Virus record (IMG/VR): IMGVR_UViG_3300013830_000007
Coordinates: 1-64,000 of that record
Direction: 5' to 3' (one strand)
DNA length: 64,000 nt
Origin: a virus
Taxonomy: Duplodnaviria; Caudoviricetes
The number at the start of each line of letters is the position of its first letter. The stretch's first letter is position 1. A program made the translations under genes and the position numbers. Below the pieces are notes generated by a model that was given only the letters and a program-made list of their open reading frames with translations, did no database searches and was not told where the DNA came from. Shown piece after piece: positions 2,666-63,268 of the stretch.

Positions 2666-5266
2666 TTACCAGGCTCTGCTTATAGCTAATGCATAGATAT
2701 AACTTGTTTTACATACAACTGTGATAGTATCGCTAGTAATATCTGTGACAGCAGCACCAGGAGCAACATCTGCATTTTCAAAATTAGACTCTGTTCCATA
2801 GTATTTGATAGATACCTGAATATCGGTTGATAAGAACGGATTAGGTACTGTATAAGTAGTATCATTAGTAGCTACCTGCATATTGTTAATAGGTACTACA
2901 CAAAATCTGCCTAAACAGGTATTGACAGGTGTCCATCCGTTATCTCCGTAAACAGCACTTCCTATACAAGTCTCAGATACTTCTTTGTTACCTTTATACA
3001 TCTTATTCTCTGGAATAGAATAAAATCTTTCAGATAAGAAATAAGCAAGATTGTATAAGGATACCACTCCATCGTTTCTATCAGTTTCAACAGTTAAGAT
3101 TAATTTCCTGACTCTGATAGGCTGATCAAAATCAGCATGATAAACGATATCGTCATCTTCAACAGAATAGAAAGGATAGTATACATCTACCGAATCGTAT
3201 ACTACACTTACTTCGTTACCAGTTTCATCTATACCGCTAACTGTCAATGTCCATGACTTAGGTACATAATCAGCATCCTCCTTCTTCCAGAACAGTGTAT
3301 AACCCATTAACAGTACATCGTCAGATTTAATCGTCTGTTCAATAACTGCTCTGTTAACACCTGCTCTGGAATACCAGCTATCTGTTCCGTTGTAGATATA
3401 AGTTAATGGAGTATCAGGATTACTTGCACCATCAATAAGGCTTAATGTACCATATACATCTGAAGTATATGCTTCAGATGTATTATCACTACCAGGATTA
3501 CTCAGATTGGATTGGAATTTATCTGAGAAAATATCTATACCTTTTCTGATGTTACCATACTCAGGAGGATAATAAGAAGTAGTGAAATATGGAGTCGAAT
3601 TTAATTCAGCTTTAGCAAATATATAGCAAGGTAACTTAGTCGCTGTTACCGGAAGTGCTGCAACTTTCCTGAAAGTATCCACAGCTGGATAAGTTACTAT
3701 TCTGTTAGCTCCATTAGTAGGTACACATACGCCAAATGATTCTTTGGTAAGAAGAATATTTGAAATAGAAGTATCAGATAAAGTTAAACTAATTTTAATC
3801 TCAAGATCAGCAGTTGCATCTAACAGAATAAATGCAATACTGTCTACTTCTATTGGATCGGGGAAAGTAATTGAACAGGTATTGGTTTCATCTATACTCT
3901 GATAATTAGTAGGATTAGTTACTCTGTGAATAAATGTTGTATTACCTGAGAATACTTTCCAATCAGTTAACTTACCATTTTTGCATTTAACTGTATACGA
4001 ACTTATAGTTCTCTTGGCATGGAACTGCATTCTGAAAGTAGCAGAACTTTGAATATCTGTTTTATTTATCTTAGCATAAGTATTATCTAAAGCAAATAAC
4101 TTAGGTGCTTCATTAACCAATGAACCTTTATTGGTAGTTATAACTCCATTAACCATATCAAACGAAGAATTATTCGCCGGATTGATTAACGAAGGAAGTA
4201 TAACTGTTATAGGCGGAGTTAATCCAGACTGACTTAACCTTGAAGGTAATAATCCCATAGGTGCATCAGTGATGATAGCAGGAGGGATGGTTACCATATT
4301 AGCTAACTGCTTGGTCATAGCGTCATTGACTAAGGTTTCGGATTCATCCTTAGTCAGATAGTTATCATGAGTATGATCAACTTTAGCATAATCAGATAAC
4401 TTAGACTTGATAATAGTATCCGCTTCAGTCTGGGAAATATATTCTGAATGGGTGTGATCAGCTTTAGCAGCTCCTATAAGGTCAGGAGTAATATTGTGCG
4501 GATTAACTGCAATCTCATGAGCATTTAACTCTGCCAAATATCTGGTAGTCTGAGCTTCTACTTCATTAGTAAGTTTATCTCTATCATGTAAGTAATCATC
4601 TTTCTTAACGAACGAAGCTGAATCAATACTTATCTGAGCTTTGGTTTTAGCACCAATATATTCATTTAATCTATCTGTTACATAATAGACAGATAATCTG
4701 TCAATTACGATAGATTCATTCTTATTGACATCGACACCTACAAATGAAATCGTATCAGTACTAATATCATCTATAGTAAAAGATACAGTAGTCTGTCCTA
4801 CTTCTCTGAAAGTAGCTACCCATTCGTTATTCTTTCTTAATTCAGCATATCCAGAAGGTATCTCACTGAAATTTGTTGTGATGAGATATGTACCGGGCTG
4901 AGCAAATGCTTTAGGATTAATAGTTAAAGAATTATCTGGTTCATTGCCTATACATTTAGCGCTATTGTCGGCAAATTCCCAATTCTTTAAAATAAAATCA
5001 TCAGGTACATTAAAATAACTGTCAACCTGAGATAACGAAATAGTTGCCAGATCCTGAAATAAGTCACCATCAGGATCTATGGATTTAAGAGCTATCTTGA
5101 TATCAAGGAGAGCTGACTCAAGCATCTCTTTATTGATAAGAGCTTTTCTGTCAGCAGTCTCATAATCTTCAGCAATTTTAGTTAATTTGGTTCCACCTAA
5201 AATAAGTTCGTCACATACTACTTTAGGTGTAACAACTTGCTGTGCTGTTAAAGTACTATTGTTCAT
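2666..5266 (-). CDS. Putative virion tail/baseplate-associated protein
   Basis: 866 aa. Contains the tail-fibre-type motif AHEIAVNPHNITPDLIGAAKADHTHSEY, a second DHTH repeat, and beta-rich C-terminal segments resembling carbohydrate-binding (discoidin-like) domains. Confidence 0.55.
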   Translation of the reverse strand: MNNSTLTAQQVVTPKVVCDELILGGTKLTKIAEDYETADRKALINKEMLESALLDIKIALKSIDPDGDLFQDLATISLSQVDSYFNVPDDFILKNWEFADNSAKCIGNEPDNSLTINPKAFAQPGTYLITTNFSEIPSGYAELRKNNEWVATFREVGQTTVSFTIDDISTDTISFVGVDVNKNESIVIDRLSVYYVTDRLNEYIGAKTKAQISIDSASFVKKDDYLHDRDKLTNEVEAQTTRYLAELNAHEIAVNPHNITPDLIGAAKADHTHSEYISQTEADTIIKSKLSDYAKVDHTHDNYLTKDESETLVNDAMTKQLANMVTIPPAIITDAPMGLLPSRLSQSGLTPPITVILPSLINPANNSSFDMVNGVITTNKGSLVNEAPKLFALDNTYAKINKTDIQSSATFRMQFHAKRTISSYTVKCKNGKLTDWKVFSGNTTFIHRVTNPTNYQSIDETNTCSITFPDPIEVDSIAFILLDATADLEIKISLTLSDTSISNILLTKESFGVCVPTNGANRIVTYPAVDTFRKVAALPVTATKLPCYIFAKAELNSTPYFTTSYYPPEYGNIRKGIDIFSDKFQSNLSNPGSDNTSEAYTSDVYGTLSLIDGASNPDTPLTYIYNGTDSWYSRAGVNRAVIEQTIKSDDVLLMGYTLFWKKEDADYVPKSWTLTVSGIDETGNEVSVVYDSVDVYYPFYSVEDDDIVYHADFDQPIRVRKLILTVETDRNDGVVSLYNLAYFLSERFYSIPENKMYKGNKEVSETCIGSAVYGDNGWTPVNTCLGRFCVVPINNMQVATNDTTYTVPNPFLSTDIQVSIKYYGTESNFENADVAPGAAVTDITSDTITVVCKTSYIYALAISRAW

Positions 5267-5356
5267 TGTGACATTTCCTTTATACGTATAAAAGTCGACT
5301 CATTTAATGGCAAGATGCTCACTACCCAAAGCGGTAGTGAACATCTTGCGTTTATT

Positions 5357-6895
5357 TTAACTAAAACTAGGCTTGGTAATATCACTATCATCTTCTTCGT
5401 CATCGTCACCCGCAGCATAAATGTTGGTAACGCTTTTATTCTCTGAGTTGATATCGTCCATGATACCTAATTCACCTTCAAATCTATAAGCAAAAAACTT
5501 ATCTTTCTCTGACGTATTCTCATGATAACGATGCTTATCCAATTTAAATGTCATCCATGGTCTATCTGTTGTATCGAGTTCCTTATTCTGATAAATAACC
5601 ATATCTACTTCTCGCTGAGGGTCTGTAGAATCAGCTAACATATCAGCTGAAAACTTTTTAACAGCACCGCATGGATTCAATCTTACCATTTCATCCGCTT
5701 TTCTATTTAACTGATGTGCAGTAATCAAACAACAGTTGTTTGATTTCAAAAAGTTACAAAGATTGGTATACAGCATTCTTACCTGAAGATAATTTCCCTG
5801 TTTATCATTACCATCTTTTCGCATCATATTAACATAATCTATGATACAAACTAACGGTGTATAACCAAGTCTTACTATTTCTTTGAATTCCATAACCAAT
5901 TCATTGAAACCAAAATCCTGTCCTACTTTACGGCGCATGATTAAACGCCAGCCGCACTCTTTAAAACGTTTAATACAATACTTAACTATATCAGCATTCG
6001 ATATATCAGCAGGAGGTACTTCTTTCTTATCATTTATCCAAAGTTCGTTGAACATAGCTTTCATATTCTGCGGAACTTCATTTTCCATTGAATAAAAAAT
6101 ACAGGTTGGATTGACAAATGACTCATCTACTTTATTCAGTGTGATTATCCAGCGTGCTAGTTTAAGCAGCATCATAGATTTACCATTATGAGCACGACTG
6201 TTTATTACCAAACTTTCTCCAAGGTCTATTCCACCATCCATGGCTTTATTCAAACCTTGCAATCCAGTAATGAATCTATTCTTTTTAGTATTGGTTGTCA
6301 ATACTTCCATAGCCTTAATCAGAGATTCTTCATCATTAGAATCCATTTCTCTGGCTAAATGTTCTTCTGCTTTTCCTTTTAACTTGTTGAAATAATCATT
6401 ATTATATTGAAGAATATTCTCATATGCTTCATTTAACTTAGCTAACGTATTTTCCTGAGCAGATACTGAATTATCAGTAGGTTTGCTCATAATACCAAAC
6501 ATTTGTCTGACTGCCTTATCATTATGCTCAAGCATTAACCATCTGCATAATTTCTGATATGAAAATTCAATAGAATCTTCATTGACTTCAGCAGTCATCA
6601 TTGACTGTATTGAACGGAGAATTTCAGGATCGTTTTGAACCGCTTTGTTATTCTTAATACGTACTATTAAAGCTTCCATCGATGCTTTATCACTAAGCGA
6701 AATATTACTGTCTAATACTTCCCTTATTAGCATTGTATAAAAATCAAACGCATCCTGATTAAGGAGCTGATTGTTATTCAAAGCTTTAACGTGTATATCA
6801 AGAATTTTAGTTGCAACATCACGGGTAGTCTGATCATTTCTCCTTAATAATAGAAACAGTGTATCTGACAATGTTTCTACAGAATATTTAACCAT
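5357..6895 (-). CDS. dnaB: DnaB-like (SF4) replicative helicase, phiKZ gp118-like
   Basis: Walker A SRAHNGKS, Walker B IIDYVNMM, motif TAHQLNR. Divergent from the head gene and capsid gene as in phiKZ. Confidence 0.85.
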   Translation of the reverse strand: MVKYSVETLSDTLFLLLRRNDQTTRDVATKILDIHVKALNNNQLLNQDAFDFYTMLIREVLDSNISLSDKASMEALIVRIKNNKAVQNDPEILRSIQSMMTAEVNEDSIEFSYQKLCRWLMLEHNDKAVRQMFGIMSKPTDNSVSAQENTLAKLNEAYENILQYNNDYFNKLKGKAEEHLAREMDSNDEESLIKAMEVLTTNTKKNRFITGLQGLNKAMDGGIDLGESLVINSRAHNGKSMMLLKLARWIITLNKVDESFVNPTCIFYSMENEVPQNMKAMFNELWINDKKEVPPADISNADIVKYCIKRFKECGWRLIMRRKVGQDFGFNELVMEFKEIVRLGYTPLVCIIDYVNMMRKDGNDKQGNYLQVRMLYTNLCNFLKSNNCCLITAHQLNRKADEMVRLNPCGAVKKFSADMLADSTDPQREVDMVIYQNKELDTTDRPWMTFKLDKHRYHENTSEKDKFFAYRFEGELGIMDDINSENKSVTNIYAAGDDDEEDDSDITKPSFS

Positions 6896-24256: not shown

Positions 24257-24425
24257 GTTACAATCCTTAACCGTCTAAGACTATTCCATGCTTTATATGA
24301 GAAAAACAAAAAAATAAAGCCGCGATTTCTCTGCGGCTTATTCACTAGATTCCAGTGCCTCGGCGTAGCTGTTAGACTACCTTCGGCTTAGACCGGCTGG
24401 TACGGGCGGGTGGCTGCTGAGTGGC

Positions 24426-24560
24426 TTAGTCCTCAGCCTTAGCAGCCTTCTTGGCTGCTTTGGCCTTGGCCTTCGCTGCCTTCCTCGCAGCCTTAGCGAG
24501 GAGCTTGAGCTCCTTGCGGCTGCAGGAAAGCTCAGCGTCCAGATGAAGCTTGCACTTCAT
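24426..24560 (-). CDS. 44-aa Lys/Ala-rich histone-H1-tail-like peptide (below ORF-track size cut-off)
   Basis: Manual translation gives MKCKLHLDAELSCSRKELKLLAKAARKAAKAKAKAAKKAAKAED*. It has an AAGGAGG RBS, AAG/GCT codon bias, its own promoter block and a downstream terminator near 24317-24339. Confidence 0.75.
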   Translation of the reverse strand: MKCKLHLDAELSCSRKELKLLAKAARKAAKAKAKAAKKAAKAED

Positions 24561-24638
24561 GGACTGGCCTCCTTTATTGGACTAGTACCGTTTGTTGAAC
24601 AACAAACAACATACAGCATCAACTAGTATAGCTTTATG

Positions 24639-24677
24639 TCACTATAGTTATATATATTCGAGAATATTTAACCTACA
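24639..24677 (-). promoter_or_regulatory. 39-bp promoter block, copy 1 (identical to 60782-60820)
   Basis: tcactatagttatatatattcgagaatatttaacctaca occurs identically at both sites and contains a TATATATAAC variant of the early motif on the minus strand. Confidence 0.75.
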
Positions 24678-59262: not shown

Positions 59263-59700
59263 TTATACTATCTGGTTGATTCGGGCACAACAGGCTAAAG
59301 AATCGCATACTTCATTGTACACATTTCCGACATGACCTTTGACCCAATGACGGTATACAACATGTCTCTTAAGCAAATCAAGTAATTGGAGCCACAGGTC
59401 AAGATTGGGAATATCCTGACCTTTGGTCTTCCAGTGTTTTTTAGCCCATCTCTTGCTATAATCAATACCATCAAGTACATACTTACTATCAGAGTATAAA
59501 TGAACTATGCATCTGGTGGTAAGTTTGGACAGTGCCATTATAACCGCAGTTAATTCCATTCTGTTACTGGTGGTATCGTAAGCCGAACCGCATAAATTCC
59601 ACTGCTGACCATTCCAAATAAGAACACTCGCCCAACCGCCCATTCGAGACTTACAACTTCCATCGGTATATATAGTAATTACTGGTAATGGCAACTCCAT
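59263..59700 (-). CDS. rnhA: Ribonuclease HI
   Basis: IYTDGSC, TTSNRMELTAVI, YSDSKYV and HWVKGHVGNVYNEVCDSLA. ATG at 59700 has a GAGG RBS. Confidence 0.95.
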   Translation of the reverse strand: MELPLPVITIYTDGSCKSRMGGWASVLIWNGQQWNLCGSAYDTTSNRMELTAVIMALSKLTTRCIVHLYSDSKYVLDGIDYSKRWAKKHWKTKGQDIPNLDLWLQLLDLLKRHVVYRHWVKGHVGNVYNEVCDSLACCARINQIV

Positions 59701-59709
59701 GAACACCTC

Positions 59710-60414
59710 TCAGCTTATTCGGACAGCATACAATCTAATGTGCTTATCCTTAATTTCCTTCTTAAAGTTATCTATAGATATTTTGTATCTATAGGGAAGC
59801 AATCTGGCAAGATGCTCCTGCGGTGTGAGAATGATATTATCTTTATCAATCTCACTGATTTTCATAATCAGATTCTCAGACTCTTCAGATATAGTCCAAG
59901 TCTCATCAAAAGATCTTAATGATGCTCTCAGGTTGGCAGAATCCATACCTGTGAGAATAAAATCATCAGCTACAGTTGCACTATTGACTTTGGCTAATTC
60001 CAGCCAGGCGTTGAGCTCATCTTCGGTATCTACAATACCAAGCTCAACATTATCATAATCAGTGAACAGATAAGCAAATGACATCTTGACTTCAAGCATA
60101 ATCTCAACTATCCACATAGGCAGATTATTGCGAATAAAAATGCCATATCTGGGTACTGAACTATCTGAAGTTTTCTTACCGTTCTCATCAGTAACGTACA
60201 TAATCTTAATCGCATCGTCATGATCGATTATTCCATTACTGGTAAGATGACAGTTTCTGAAAATATCAAAAAAGTCAACAACACTGTTAGTAGTGTTTCT
60301 CATACGGATAGACATGAGCATAGTGTATTTGCTCGGTATCTCTTCCTCTGGTTTAAAAGCCCCTGCTGTTCTGGCTTTAACCATCATCTGAAATGTATCT
60401 TTCACATCATACAT
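59710..60414 (-). CDS. Hypothetical protein
   Basis: 234-aa ORF upstream of rnhA. Confidence 0.65.
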   Translation of the reverse strand: MYDVKDTFQMMVKARTAGAFKPEEEIPSKYTMLMSIRMRNTTNSVVDFFDIFRNCHLTSNGIIDHDDAIKIMYVTDENGKKTSDSSVPRYGIFIRNNLPMWIVEIMLEVKMSFAYLFTDYDNVELGIVDTEDELNAWLELAKVNSATVADDFILTGMDSANLRASLRSFDETWTISEESENLIMKISEIDKDNIILTPQEHLARLLPYRYKISIDNFKKEIKDKHIRLYAVRIS

Positions 60415-60509
60415 TTTGAGTATTCAATTCCTATAAAACCTTTATACAAAATCCCTGTATCTATTGATACCACTGCATACTCTCAATATATTAAAAATGA
60501 AAAAAAAAA

Positions 60510-60783
60510 AAAAATAAGCTGTCATTTCTGACAGCCTATTTCCGAACGGACTCAGTGATCGTTGCGCTTGGTCTGCTCGTATCAGACCCGATCACTGCCG
60601 CTCTTCCGCATCCAGGGCTTCTCTCCAGTCACCTGTGCGGCTCATCCCCGTGTGCATCCGAGGTCTGCTACGAGCAGCGTTCACTGTCTGAGTGCTAGGT
60701 ATTCCTAACACCTTCAACAGCGCTCCCGCTTTTTAATGCACTTATTGCACGGGAGGATATATGCACATTGCTGTACACATATC
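60510..60783 (-). ncRNA. Candidate structured non-coding RNA (~270 nt), family not recognised
   Basis: 57% GC over 60541-60720 in an AT-rich genome, at least six hairpins, its own promoter block (60782-60820) and a GAAA-loop terminator followed by 15 T. Confidence 0.6.
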
Positions 60784-60820
60784 ACTATAGTTATATATAT
60801 TCGAGAATATTTAACCTACA
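60782..60820 (-). promoter_or_regulatory. 39-bp promoter block, copy 2 (identical to 24639-24677)
   Basis: Exact 39-bp identity, same orientation. Confidence 0.75.
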
Positions 60821-61003
60821 GTTTAAAATAGTAGTCCCCGATTTCTCGGAGGCTACTAGGTTATCAAGGTTCAATAGAGGTTAGAGATTTTAGCATCATG
60901 GGAACAACCAGTAACGATAACCCAAGCAGGAGGTTAAATGAAAATCACAAATCCGAAATTTTCATTGTTACTAATTATCTCAATTAATAGCCCGAGTTAA
61001 TTT

Positions 61004-63268
61004 TTATTCAACATGTGCTAACGCTTTCTTTCCTTCCTCTTCGCTTACCCATCCATAGACATTGGAAAATATTATATCTTTCTTGGCATCGCCAACTGAT
61101 ATTCCAAGTGAACCCAATATCAGATACAAAGGTTTGGAATTTGCCGATACCAATTTGTTATAGTCAATCACTGGCTGCAGTTCTGCAGGTATAGTATTAA
61201 ACGACGGGTTAATCGGTATTCTATTCAAATCTTTATCAGGATACTTTTCTTTAAATCTCATTAACTTCTGATAAATCCCAAAATCTTTTTCTTTCAGCCA
61301 ATCCTGATATTTTAAACTCTCCATACCAAAAAGCGGAACTATATAACACTTAGTAGGTATCTGGATTTTACCATACTTATCTCCGAATACTTCTTCCCAT
61401 AACAAATAATTAAAATATACGGATGAATCGGCATTAGCATATTCATCTTTGTTTTTAATTGCAGTCATGGGTAAAAATTCAGTCTGTAAGTGTCTCAATG
61501 AGTCTCTTATCATTCTTTCGAATCTTAATACGTCAATTAATTTCTCTTCCGCAACAACCGTAGATTTCGAATAAATATCATCGATTACAGACCTAATAAA
61601 CCACTCAGTGTAGGATAGTACTCCCTTACTAAAATTAGATCCTCTTAACCCAACTCCTTTGATATCAAGACGTGGAGTTTTGAATACAACACCTTCCTGA
61701 ATTTTCAGTATACTGGCATAATGTTTTTTCAACGATGTCAAAATATCAACTGGCATCATGAATTCGTTTTTCATCGCCATACCAGTCAAATCTTTACCAA
61801 GTGCGCCGAATGCTTCGCTTACATGAAACAAAACATTGGCATTGGCTTTACTCAGCCAATAGACGATCAGAGAATTGATCTGATACGCTTTACTGTCCAT
61901 GACTGTATTACCTTTGTACCACTGTAACCAGCTCTTGGTAGTAAAAATAATACTATCGGTATCACTGACAACTACGGCATCACGATATTGATTTTTATGC
62001 TCAACAACGTATGAAACGTTAACGTTGTGATTCATAAACAAATCAAAAACATCCATGAAACTTTTAAGCATTATTTCAAGATGCTTTCCATAAGCCGCTA
62101 ATCTCCGGGCTAATTCAGGGTTGACTTTAATACAATCGTAAATCGAAATAGCATTTCCCTTATCGTTCAGAGGCAGCATTTCGTTACATACGGTACTCAG
62201 GATAATGGCAACATCTCCATCGATGTTGTTAATATCATCGGGTACAATATTCTGATCAACTTCAACTTTACTGAAATCAAAAAGTTTTTGAGTCCAATCT
62301 CTGAACCAACTGTCGTTAGTAAAAACAAGATGTTTCATATTGCTCATGTAAAATACGAAACACAGTTGTTCTTTACTGAAAGTCCGGAGTAGTCGGTCAA
62401 TTGGTGAAGTCTCAGCCAGAAAATCATATCGTTTTAAAGCTTTAAATAAAAACTCTTCAACCATTTCGAAACTAGGATAAACGAATCCGTATTTATCCAT
62501 AATCTCGTCGATTTTCTTACTATCAGGACCACACCGCAGGCACCCCATCAAAAAGTTAATAACCTGCTCAGTATTCAGGAAATAGAAATTACTTTCAAGA
62601 AATCTTTCAGCATGAGCATATGAGTTCATGATGAAGAATCTTCCGATACTGGTAACACTGTTAAAATCAGCTACTGAACTCAGACTGCTGAACCCACTTC
62701 CCATTCCGCCAGCTATTGAGTTCATCAGTACTTTGATAGTACTCTGGTTGTTGTTGTGGAATACTTCAGCGACTTTGTTACATTCTTTCTTAGCCTTGAG
62801 CATAAGCTTTTTCTCCTGCTTACGCTGGCTTTTTTTCATATCAATCATTCCCTTCAGATAACTTACGCATTTATCAGTAGTTTCAAAAACTACTCCGAAA
62901 GGAGAGATAATTTTATCAGAATACCGTTTGGTGAATTTATACAAATCCATATCAGGAATTTCGATATAATCACCATATACGTGAGCTCTGTTGTGAATAT
63001 TATTACTATCAGAGCTTCGAATACAACGAAGAGTAGGCCACAATTGGTCATCCCCGAATCGGGGAGTGTTAAGGTCTAATCCTTCGTTCCTGGCCCTTTC
63101 AAGATTGCCTATCAGTACGCCGACTCTCCGATTAACTTTATCAGCTACCCATTCACGAATCTCTTCATAGTCAAACTCAGGATGAGTTCGTTTCAAATAA
63201 TCTGACATTACCGAAATGTAAGATTCAAATACATCTGGCCGTTTAATAGGAACAGTATTAAAATTCAT
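61004..63268 (-). CDS. Family-B DNA polymerase, C-terminal half (phiKZ gp50-like)
   Basis: Motif B K...QSTIKVLMNSIAGG, motif C VVSDTDSIIF, KKHY and DIKGV. No exonuclease motifs and no motif A. Confidence 0.85.
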   Translation of the reverse strand: MNFNTVPIKRPDVFESYISVMSDYLKRTHPEFDYEEIREWVADKVNRRVGVLIGNLERARNEGLDLNTPRFGDDQLWPTLRCIRSSDSNNIHNRAHVYGDYIEIPDMDLYKFTKRYSDKIISPFGVVFETTDKCVSYLKGMIDMKKSQRKQEKKLMLKAKKECNKVAEVFHNNNQSTIKVLMNSIAGGMGSGFSSLSSVADFNSVTSIGRFFIMNSYAHAERFLESNFYFLNTEQVINFLMGCLRCGPDSKKIDEIMDKYGFVYPSFEMVEEFLFKALKRYDFLAETSPIDRLLRTFSKEQLCFVFYMSNMKHLVFTNDSWFRDWTQKLFDFSKVEVDQNIVPDDINNIDGDVAIILSTVCNEMLPLNDKGNAISIYDCIKVNPELARRLAAYGKHLEIMLKSFMDVFDLFMNHNVNVSYVVEHKNQYRDAVVVSDTDSIIFTTKSWLQWYKGNTVMDSKAYQINSLIVYWLSKANANVLFHVSEAFGALGKDLTGMAMKNEFMMPVDILTSLKKHYASILKIQEGVVFKTPRLDIKGVGLRGSNFSKGVLSYTEWFIRSVIDDIYSKSTVVAEEKLIDVLRFERMIRDSLRHLQTEFLPMTAIKNKDEYANADSSVYFNYLLWEEVFGDKYGKIQIPTKCYIVPLFGMESLKYQDWLKEKDFGIYQKLMRFKEKYPDKDLNRIPINPSFNTIPAELQPVIDYNKLVSANSKPLYLILGSLGISVGDAKKDIIFSNVYGWVSEEEGKKALAHVE

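Follow-up and report, generated by a model that had tools for sequence, protein, structure and literature searches.

The 64,000-nucleotide stretch of phage DNA analysed here (the window) carries on its minus strand, between a DNA polymerase gene and the genes leading to RNase HI, a structured noncoding RNA gene. Its fold is under purifying selection, it represents a new and narrow family, it sits in an exchangeable slot, and it is dispensable for the adjacent replication genes. The general kind is familiar: an orphan structured RNA encoded by a phage. RNAs that combine a length of a few hundred nucleotides with a defined structure and conserved tertiary contacts are rare, and those described are often ribozymes, scaffolds or regulators; to our knowledge very few RNAs of such size come from phages, and almost none from large uncultured gut phages. 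The explanation that we favour, with a confidence somewhat above even, is an independently transcribed RNA gene whose product is a clade-restricted accessory and would act in trans on a partner through its conserved loops.

The window covers the first 64 kb of an IMG/VR record of 88 kb, to which CheckV assigns a completeness of 34%. Relatives of its polymerase are located on gut-metagenome contigs of 200-250 kb, and the record is therefore read as a fragment of a jumbo phage. The neighbours attributed to the RNA in an earlier note on this DNA are in place, with the polymerase gene on the upstream side and, downstream, a gene for a 234-aa protein followed by that for RNase HI (Table 1). The 234-aa protein has no match in Pfam or PHROG. 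Its AlphaFold model (pLDDT 70) gives weak matches to papain-like, C39 peptidase, Josephin and CtaG folds (E 0.04-0.3), with no RNA-related fold among them; Cys55 of the protein is invariant across nine homologues. We also noted a hydrophobic mini-ORF of 20 aa (MKITNPKF...) on the plus strand at 60938-61000, which has a GGAGG site and runs antisense to the last part of the polymerase transcript. Relatives of the L016 type have kept this ORF, and in L020 it is frameshifted (both types are described below); it may be a type I toxin-like peptide, or have no significance. In L004, a relative at 77%, some 2.4 kb upstream of the polymerase gene (L004:568-3001) are without a called gene.

The RNA unit stands out as a GC island. 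Its GC content is 0.50-0.53 in 200-nt windows and reaches 0.60 in windows of 150 nt, compared with about 0.35 in the flanks and 0.366 as the genome average; G exceeds C in the RNA (82 vs 59). For the minus strand the folding energy is -121.7 kcal/mol, compared with -83.3 +/- 5.2 kcal/mol for 200 dinucleotide shuffles, none of which does as well (z = -7.42); for the plus strand of the same stretch z is -4.5. These values bear out the proposal of a GC-rich, multi-hairpin noncoding RNA candidate. The stems that had been named from the letters all occur in the minus strand's minimum-free-energy fold: atgtgtac/gtgcatat is H1, ctcccg/cgggag is H2, gtgttagg/cctagcac is the inner part of H3, ccgca/tgcgg with cagg/cctg is H6, and cagtgatcg/cgatcactg with ggtctg/cagacc is H7. 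The overall architecture in this fold is a row of seven hairpins and then a terminator, the latter recovered by the terminator scan where a hairpin with T15 had been claimed. The RNA is single-copy in the 88-kb record, and our two covariance models, R1 and R2, match it at 338-353 bits.

Table 1. Features of the RNA unit, its gene neighbours and the sister unit (window coordinates).
Feature	Position	Strand	Remarks
Divergent family B DNA polymerase gene	61004-63268	minus	PF20286, E 2e-106; upstream of RNA
Terminator-like hairpin closing the polymerase transcript	60836-60851	minus	Terminator scan; just upstream of RNA unit
39-nt AT-rich promoter-like element (TGTAGGTTAAAT...CTATAGTGA)	60782-60820	minus	Directly upstream of RNA
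RNA unit	60784-60500	minus	~270-285 nt including the U tract (~270 nt without); RNA position p = window 60785 - p
H1, 5' hairpin, 12 pairs	60756-60783	minus	Minimum-free-energy fold; not clearly present in L020
H2, 7-pair stem, large loop with GUGCAU (positions 44-49)	60723-60755	minus	Minimum-free-energy fold
H3, two-part hairpin, 7 + 9 pairs	60682-60722	minus	Minimum-free-energy fold
Segment A, containing small hairpin H4	60662-60677	minus	5' half of long-range inverted repeat
H5, 5-pair stem	60646-60663	minus	Conserved loop GAUGCACA
H6, 5 + 4 pairs	60606-60640	minus	Loop with GACUGG..AGA
H7, long three-part hairpin, 6 + 9 + 6 pairs	60544-60603	minus	Tip 60573-60588 = segment B
Intrinsic terminator	60500-60543	minus	Terminator scan; 15-pair stem (60543-60510), GAAA loop, T15
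234-aa gene, family unassigned	59710-60414	minus	Downstream of RNA, starts 85 nt away
RNase HI gene	59263-59706	minus	Downstream, beyond 234-aa gene
Sister unit	24289-24677	minus	Identical 39-nt element, GC-rich, structured trailer, terminator
44-aa Lys/Ala-rich ORF in sister unit	24560-24426	minus	Strong Shine-Dalgarno site

As to the claim that the RNA is a transcription unit of its own, the terminator is evident, while the promoter stays putative and is suggested by a 39-nt repeat that is partly conserved in relatives. Exactly two copies of this element exist in the 88-kb record, on the minus strand at 60820-60782 and at 24677-24639. Upstream of each copy stands the terminator hairpin of the gene before, and downstream a GC-rich island that ends in its own hairpin and T run. 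Because the element is duplicated in front of two small terminator-bounded units, we read it as a probable dedicated promoter common to both. In L020 34 of its 39 positions are kept, and 23 of the 38 positions counted from GTAG are kept across the window, L020 and L016. The hairpin that closes the polymerase transcript is likewise kept in L020, with compensatory changes. At this same hairpin L012 (~2069-2098) shows a flipped loop, GAGAAATC to GATTTCTC, with one arm altered and the stem pairing perfectly; the change is a small hairpin inversion. As for the second copy of the element, L035 encodes a 52-aa variant of the peptide of the sister unit, kept at the protein level, so that the sister unit is protein-coding; co-regulation of this unit and the RNA is possible.

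Comparison with known RNA classes agrees with the earlier failure to match the RNA to tRNA, tmRNA, SRP, RNase P or common riboswitches. The 4227 models of Rfam 15, which cover SRP, RNase P, 6S, tmRNA, riboswitches, ribozymes, group I/II introns, pRNA, GOLLD, ROOL and HEARO, give no match at gathering scores across the whole window. A scan of 60350-61050 at E values up to 10 returns chance-level matches of at most 21 bits that leave the RNA body uncovered. Rfam likewise returns nothing for the L016- and L020-type RNAs, and ARAGORN finds no tRNA or tmRNA in the window, L016 or L020. Three specific candidates were rejected on other grounds as well. A DGR template RNA is contradicted by a sensitive blastn search of the RNA against the 88-kb record, which gives nothing near the DGR-like variable region at 47.1 kb, and by the lack of any RVT_1 match, hence of a reverse transcriptase, in the record. 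A CsrB/Rsm-type sponge does not fit the GGA count, which is not enriched (6 by eye vs ~6 expected from base composition). The pRNA architecture is excluded by the lack of a match to RF00044 and by a fold that is a row of hairpins and not a three-way junction.

The coding candidate is a 41-aa frame that starts at TTG and is open in the window allele, with GGGAG five bases ahead; a peptide is encoded in the sister unit, behind the identical 39-nt element, which adds some weight to the view that this frame, or another short one, makes the unit a small protein gene. Codon-like conservation of the frame had been proposed as the observation that would speak against a noncoding RNA, and it is not seen. 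Among the eight further contigs with the window allele, a 1-nt insertion in L012 and L036 shortens the frame to 16 aa. L020 has no equivalent frame, its only likeness ("MHT") being the conserved loop read as codons. The GGGAG is itself one arm of stem H2, and so is buried in the fold, and the substitutions track base pairs and not codons. We regard the coding reading as close to excluded, and the chance that the unit is a small protein gene as slim.

Covariation supports the fold. The collection of homologues that had been suggested for this purpose yields one divergent homologue, L020, whose stem pairs change on both sides, and a set of natural variants that add compensatory changes. By sequence alone, the window RNA and L020 are only marginally similar. 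Model R1, which was built from four variants of the window allele, matches L020 in the same slot and over the full length with 49.8 bits (E ~1e-13); as controls, other terminators and GC-rich units score at most 18 bits, and the L016 type about 10. The L020-type RNA has 249 nt, a GC content of 0.51 and a fold z of -7.17. Seven motifs occur in identical order in the window RNA and L020 (GUGCAU, GUUGAA, CUCAGA, GGAUGCACAC, GACUGG, GGAAGA and UUCGGAA), and none of the seven is present in the L016-type RNA. In the alignment of L020, which is fitted to the model, represents a single divergent lineage and is doubtful in its 5' third (H1 is aligned to promoter DNA), 99% of the cells pair and 39 of 90 pairs are changed on both sides, compared with 4-6 in controls with slid partners. 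By eye, the second hairpin of L020 fits H2 better than H3. The well-aligned 3' part, H5 to the terminator, is the one on which we rely, and it holds 22 of the changes on both sides: 3/5 pairs in H5, 4/9 in H6, 7/15 in the base and middle of H7, and 8/15 in the terminator. The base and middle stems of H7 still pair in L020. While the stems change, the H5 loop GAUGCACA is identical in L020 and the loop motif of H6 is kept. With the same slot, promoter-like element, collinear motifs and compensated stems, the window allele and the L020 type constitute the new family proposed here, to which the L016-type RNA does not belong.

The eight further contigs bring the window allele to nine sequences, the window included. 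Two double changes among them are compensatory, C148U/G176A in H6 (L012) and G250A/C267U in the terminator. Five single changes keep or improve a pair: A25G in H1 turns U-A into U-G, U36C improves a pair of H2, A61G leaves a wobble in H2, and U268C and G249A improve pairs of the terminator. One substitution, U31C, breaks a pair of H2 (C-A mismatch), and the remaining ones fall in loops. H3 is free of substitutions among the variants, save for a 1-nt insertion at its 3' foot. No change at all is seen at positions 108-147 and 177-248, and H7 is invariant in the nine sequences. This invariant core, together with compensatory change in stems elsewhere, argues that the fold is under purifying selection.

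A second layer of pairing connects distant parts of the RNA. The 9-nt long-range complement claimed for the unit exists, and had been understated: between RNA positions 108-123 (60677-60662) and 197-212 (60588-60573), 15 of 16 positions match by Watson-Crick rules, a number that none of 1000 dinucleotide shuffles reaches. The repeat of ggtctgct is also present in its two copies. The duplex of these two segments is worth -27.7 kcal/mol, against -13.9 kcal/mol for the two local hairpins that it replaces. The best nested fold that contains the duplex lies 7 kcal/mol above the optimum, because the middle stem of H7 is then excluded; if the duplex and this middle stem were to form together, the result would be an H-type pseudoknot. 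At the corresponding place in L020 the helix has no counterpart; by eye, L020 has a different long-range complement of 11 pairs that involves the tip of H6. Of the proposal of two alternative folds acting as a switch, the competing pairing stands as statistically real in the window allele, and its conservation does not. L020, the only divergent homologue, lacks it, which leaves the switch unproven, and the pairing could equally be a pseudoknot.

A shorter complement joins two loops. GUGCAU in the loop of H2 and AUGCAC in the loop of H5 are perfectly complementary, around a palindromic UGCA core, and both are kept in L020, where the complementary motifs stand at positions 45/106 (44/128 in the window RNA). 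We consider this 6-nt complement a candidate kissing contact between two loops that are invariant and therefore show no covariation.

The slot of the RNA, bounded by the polymerase gene on one side and the 234-aa/RNase HI genes on the other, is hypervariable, and is occupied by the window RNA, by an unrelated structured RNA, by protein genes with a tRNA, or by nothing. Most contigs that encode an identical 234-aa protein carry the RNA. L007, whose 234-aa protein is also identical, lacks it: 42 unrelated bases replace about 345, between the clean breakpoints TTTTAAA| and |GTGGTATCAATAG. The RNA is absent as well from L004 and L005 (77% identical polymerase) and from L041 (55%). Other relatives have different contents, with a crAss001_48-like small gene and a tRNA-Met in L006 (61% relative, 5293-5628), and three small ORFs that have no Pfam match in L042 (54% relative, 4851-5756). 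Phages with an 82-87% identical 234-aa protein have a recognisable promoter-like element and a terminator, and the RNA between these differs. To this group belong the L020 type and the L016 type (L016:2611-2911, L017 and L018), the latter an unrelated structured RNA candidate of 301 nt with GC 0.445 and z = -3.4, which stands behind a diverged copy of the promoter-like element. The slot thus behaves, on comparison of these contigs, as a general accessory-gene hot spot. Near the RNA unit we found no target-site duplications, terminal repeats, transposase, reverse transcriptase or endonuclease. Three scaffolds (L010, L013 and L015) have N gaps at the RNA unit, and the contigs L043 and L044 end at the sister unit, which suggests either heterogeneity of the population or assembly breaks due to the repeated 39-nt element.

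The RNA family is so far known only from ENA and Logan gut assemblies of close relatives of this phage. With blastn, the RNA has no match in 50,697 phage records or 72,556 plasmids. Exact and IUPAC scans of IMG/VR with a 19-mer of the RNA, a 23-mer of the promoter, a degenerate promoter and a three-motif core gave 0 matches each. The degenerate promoter has one match in JGI metagenomes, and this is the sister peptide unit and not the RNA. In GTDB genomes the three-motif core matches 3 times vs about 4 expected by chance; one match is in a CDS, one in a short 5' UTR, and none fits the model. Model R2 finds nothing in 151 Clostridia genomes and two Oscillospirales MAGs, and neither R1 nor R2 finds anything in the L016 type, the empty slots or 14 distant polymerase loci.

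A working model can be drawn for the trans-acting accessory RNA. Transcription of the minus strand would start just after the 39-nt promoter-like element and end at the hairpin with T15. The transcript would fold as the row of seven hairpins, probably with tertiary contacts added, namely the contact between the H2 and H5 loops and, in the window allele, the 15-pair pseudoknot helix with H7. It would be made in quantity from its own strong promoter, and would be stable, with hairpins at its 5' and 3' ends. A protein or RNA partner might be contacted through the H5 loop GAUGCACA, the H6 loop with GACUGG..AGA and the GGAAGA linker. Action in trans through these loops is what their conservation suggests to us; antisense sites for the H5 and H6 loops are not present in the 88-kb record, about a third of the genome according to CheckV. 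The role of the RNA would be that of an accessory in host interaction or of a decoy, and not that of a core replication part: slot cargo and rapid turnover fit host interaction or counter-defence better than a core role in replication. A decoy or sponge, one of the three functions that the earlier note had put forward, is possible. The other two, primer and leader switch, are disfavoured for reasons given below.

A cis-acting leader (riboswitch, T-box-like element or attenuator), in which the long-range alternative pairing controls read-through into the 234-aa/RNase HI operon, would make sense of an RNA that is encoded on the strand of the 234-aa gene and 85 nt ahead of it, has a terminator at its end and has alternative pairings available. 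Its linkage to the downstream gene is not constant, however. L007 has the identical downstream gene and L004, L005 and L041 have the same operon, all without the RNA. The competing segments (108-123/197-212) are far from the terminator arms (242-275), to which no anti-terminator complement could be found by eye, and there is no riboswitch or T-box match. The unit at 24.6 kb has the same 39-nt element and different downstream genes. An operon that exists without the RNA, and competing pairings that miss the terminator, make a cis leader quite improbable. To the same low degree we credit a replication primer or R-loop RNA similar to ColE1 RNA II, which the phage RNase HI would process to prime DNA synthesis. 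The location between the DNA polymerase and RNase HI genes and the excess of G over C are as expected of such an RNA, but the transcript stops at the strong hairpin-T15 terminator and points away from a putative origin-like region some 2.5 kb off. Phages with identical neighbour genes do without the RNA, the slot of relatives holds unrelated cargo, and a compact conserved hairpin fold is not needed by a primer that forms a hybrid. It is the terminator, the direction of transcription and the dispensability of the RNA that make a ColE1-like primer unlikely.

Presence/absence and replacement polymorphism among near-identical phages, the scaffold gaps and contig ends at both units, and the narrow distribution of the family could also be accounted for by selfish or relict cargo, that is, by what is left of a mobile element or by a passenger that recombination exchanges between conserved flanks, with a structure that serves its own stability only. 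Cargo devoid of function is hard to square with a core that is invariant in nine sequences, with compensatory changes in stems and with loops that are kept across types, and the flanks have neither the duplications or repeats nor the mobility enzymes of such an element; we judge it unlikely, if less so than the leader or the primer. Between these in our estimate, with a chance that is small, comes a self-assembling RNA of the pRNA or ROOL/GOLLD/raiA type, in which the complementary H2 and H5 loops pair between molecules to give dimers, rings or larger assemblies. The GUGCAU/AUGCAC complement, which both RNA types have at corresponding positions and which does not vary where the stems do, supports this reading, and a GC-rich, phage-encoded RNA with long-range pairing potential suits it. 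Invariant loops, however, show no covariation, pairing within and between molecules looks the same in sequence, no pRNA, ROOL or GOLLD model matches, and the unit is dispensable in close relatives. A more elaborate version, to which we attach a slightly smaller chance still, is a compact pseudoknotted particle that self-associates through the H2 and H5 loops and would serve as a scaffold or decoy in infection, possibly together with the 44-aa Lys/Ala-rich peptide encoded behind the identical 39-nt element. If this were true, the RNA would correspond, in a phage and on a small scale, to pRNA rings or ROOL/GOLLD cages.

Whichever partner the proposed trans-acting RNA may have, near-identical phages hold natural "knock-out" and "replacement" alleles, and these offer a ready-made functional comparison. 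The exchangeable slot, marked by a common promoter-like element, points to jumbo phages that swap small genes for RNAs and peptides. If the RNA is a decoy or a host-takeover factor, an RNA-based tool would be added to the conflict between phage and host; if it is neither, structural study still gains a clean new RNA family.

Among known systems, ColE1 RNA II is similar in being a structured RNA of a few hundred nucleotides that has alternative folds and lies beside replication genes that include RNase HI; it differs in that the window RNA ends at a terminator and is missing from phages whose replication genes are the same. With CsrB/RsmZ and 6S RNA it shares the multi-hairpin unit of an abundant type, and GGA is found in two conserved linkers as well as in the conserved loop of H5; it differs in having no GGA enrichment, no long bulged hairpin of the 6S kind and no match to the models. 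A search of the literature for comparable jumbo-phage RNAs gave nothing relevant. RNAs C and D of phage T4 (species 1 and 2) are, as the window RNA would be, small, stable, nonessential phage RNAs that are not tRNAs. Compared by description only, they differ in lying in the T4 tRNA cluster and being processed from a precursor, where the window RNA has its own promoter-like element and terminator.

The pRNA of the phi29 family (RF00044) is also a stand-alone RNA encoded by a phage, diverges fast in sequence while its structure is kept, and has two complementary loops. These loops pair between molecules, whereas those of the window RNA are known as sequence complements alone. The pRNA has 120-174 nt and a three-way junction, and the window RNA about 270 nt and a row of seven hairpins; phi29 is a podovirus, while the window RNA belongs to a jumbo phage and is dispensable in near-identical phages. 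GOLLD and ROOL, and also raiA and OLE, are 2-3 times larger than the window RNA, which matches none of their models at any threshold and is so far found in a single phage clade. They resemble it as GC-rich, structured and noncoding RNAs in AT-rich phage or prophage DNA that have long-range pairings; a further likeness is that a tRNA gene can take the slot of the window RNA, as in L006.
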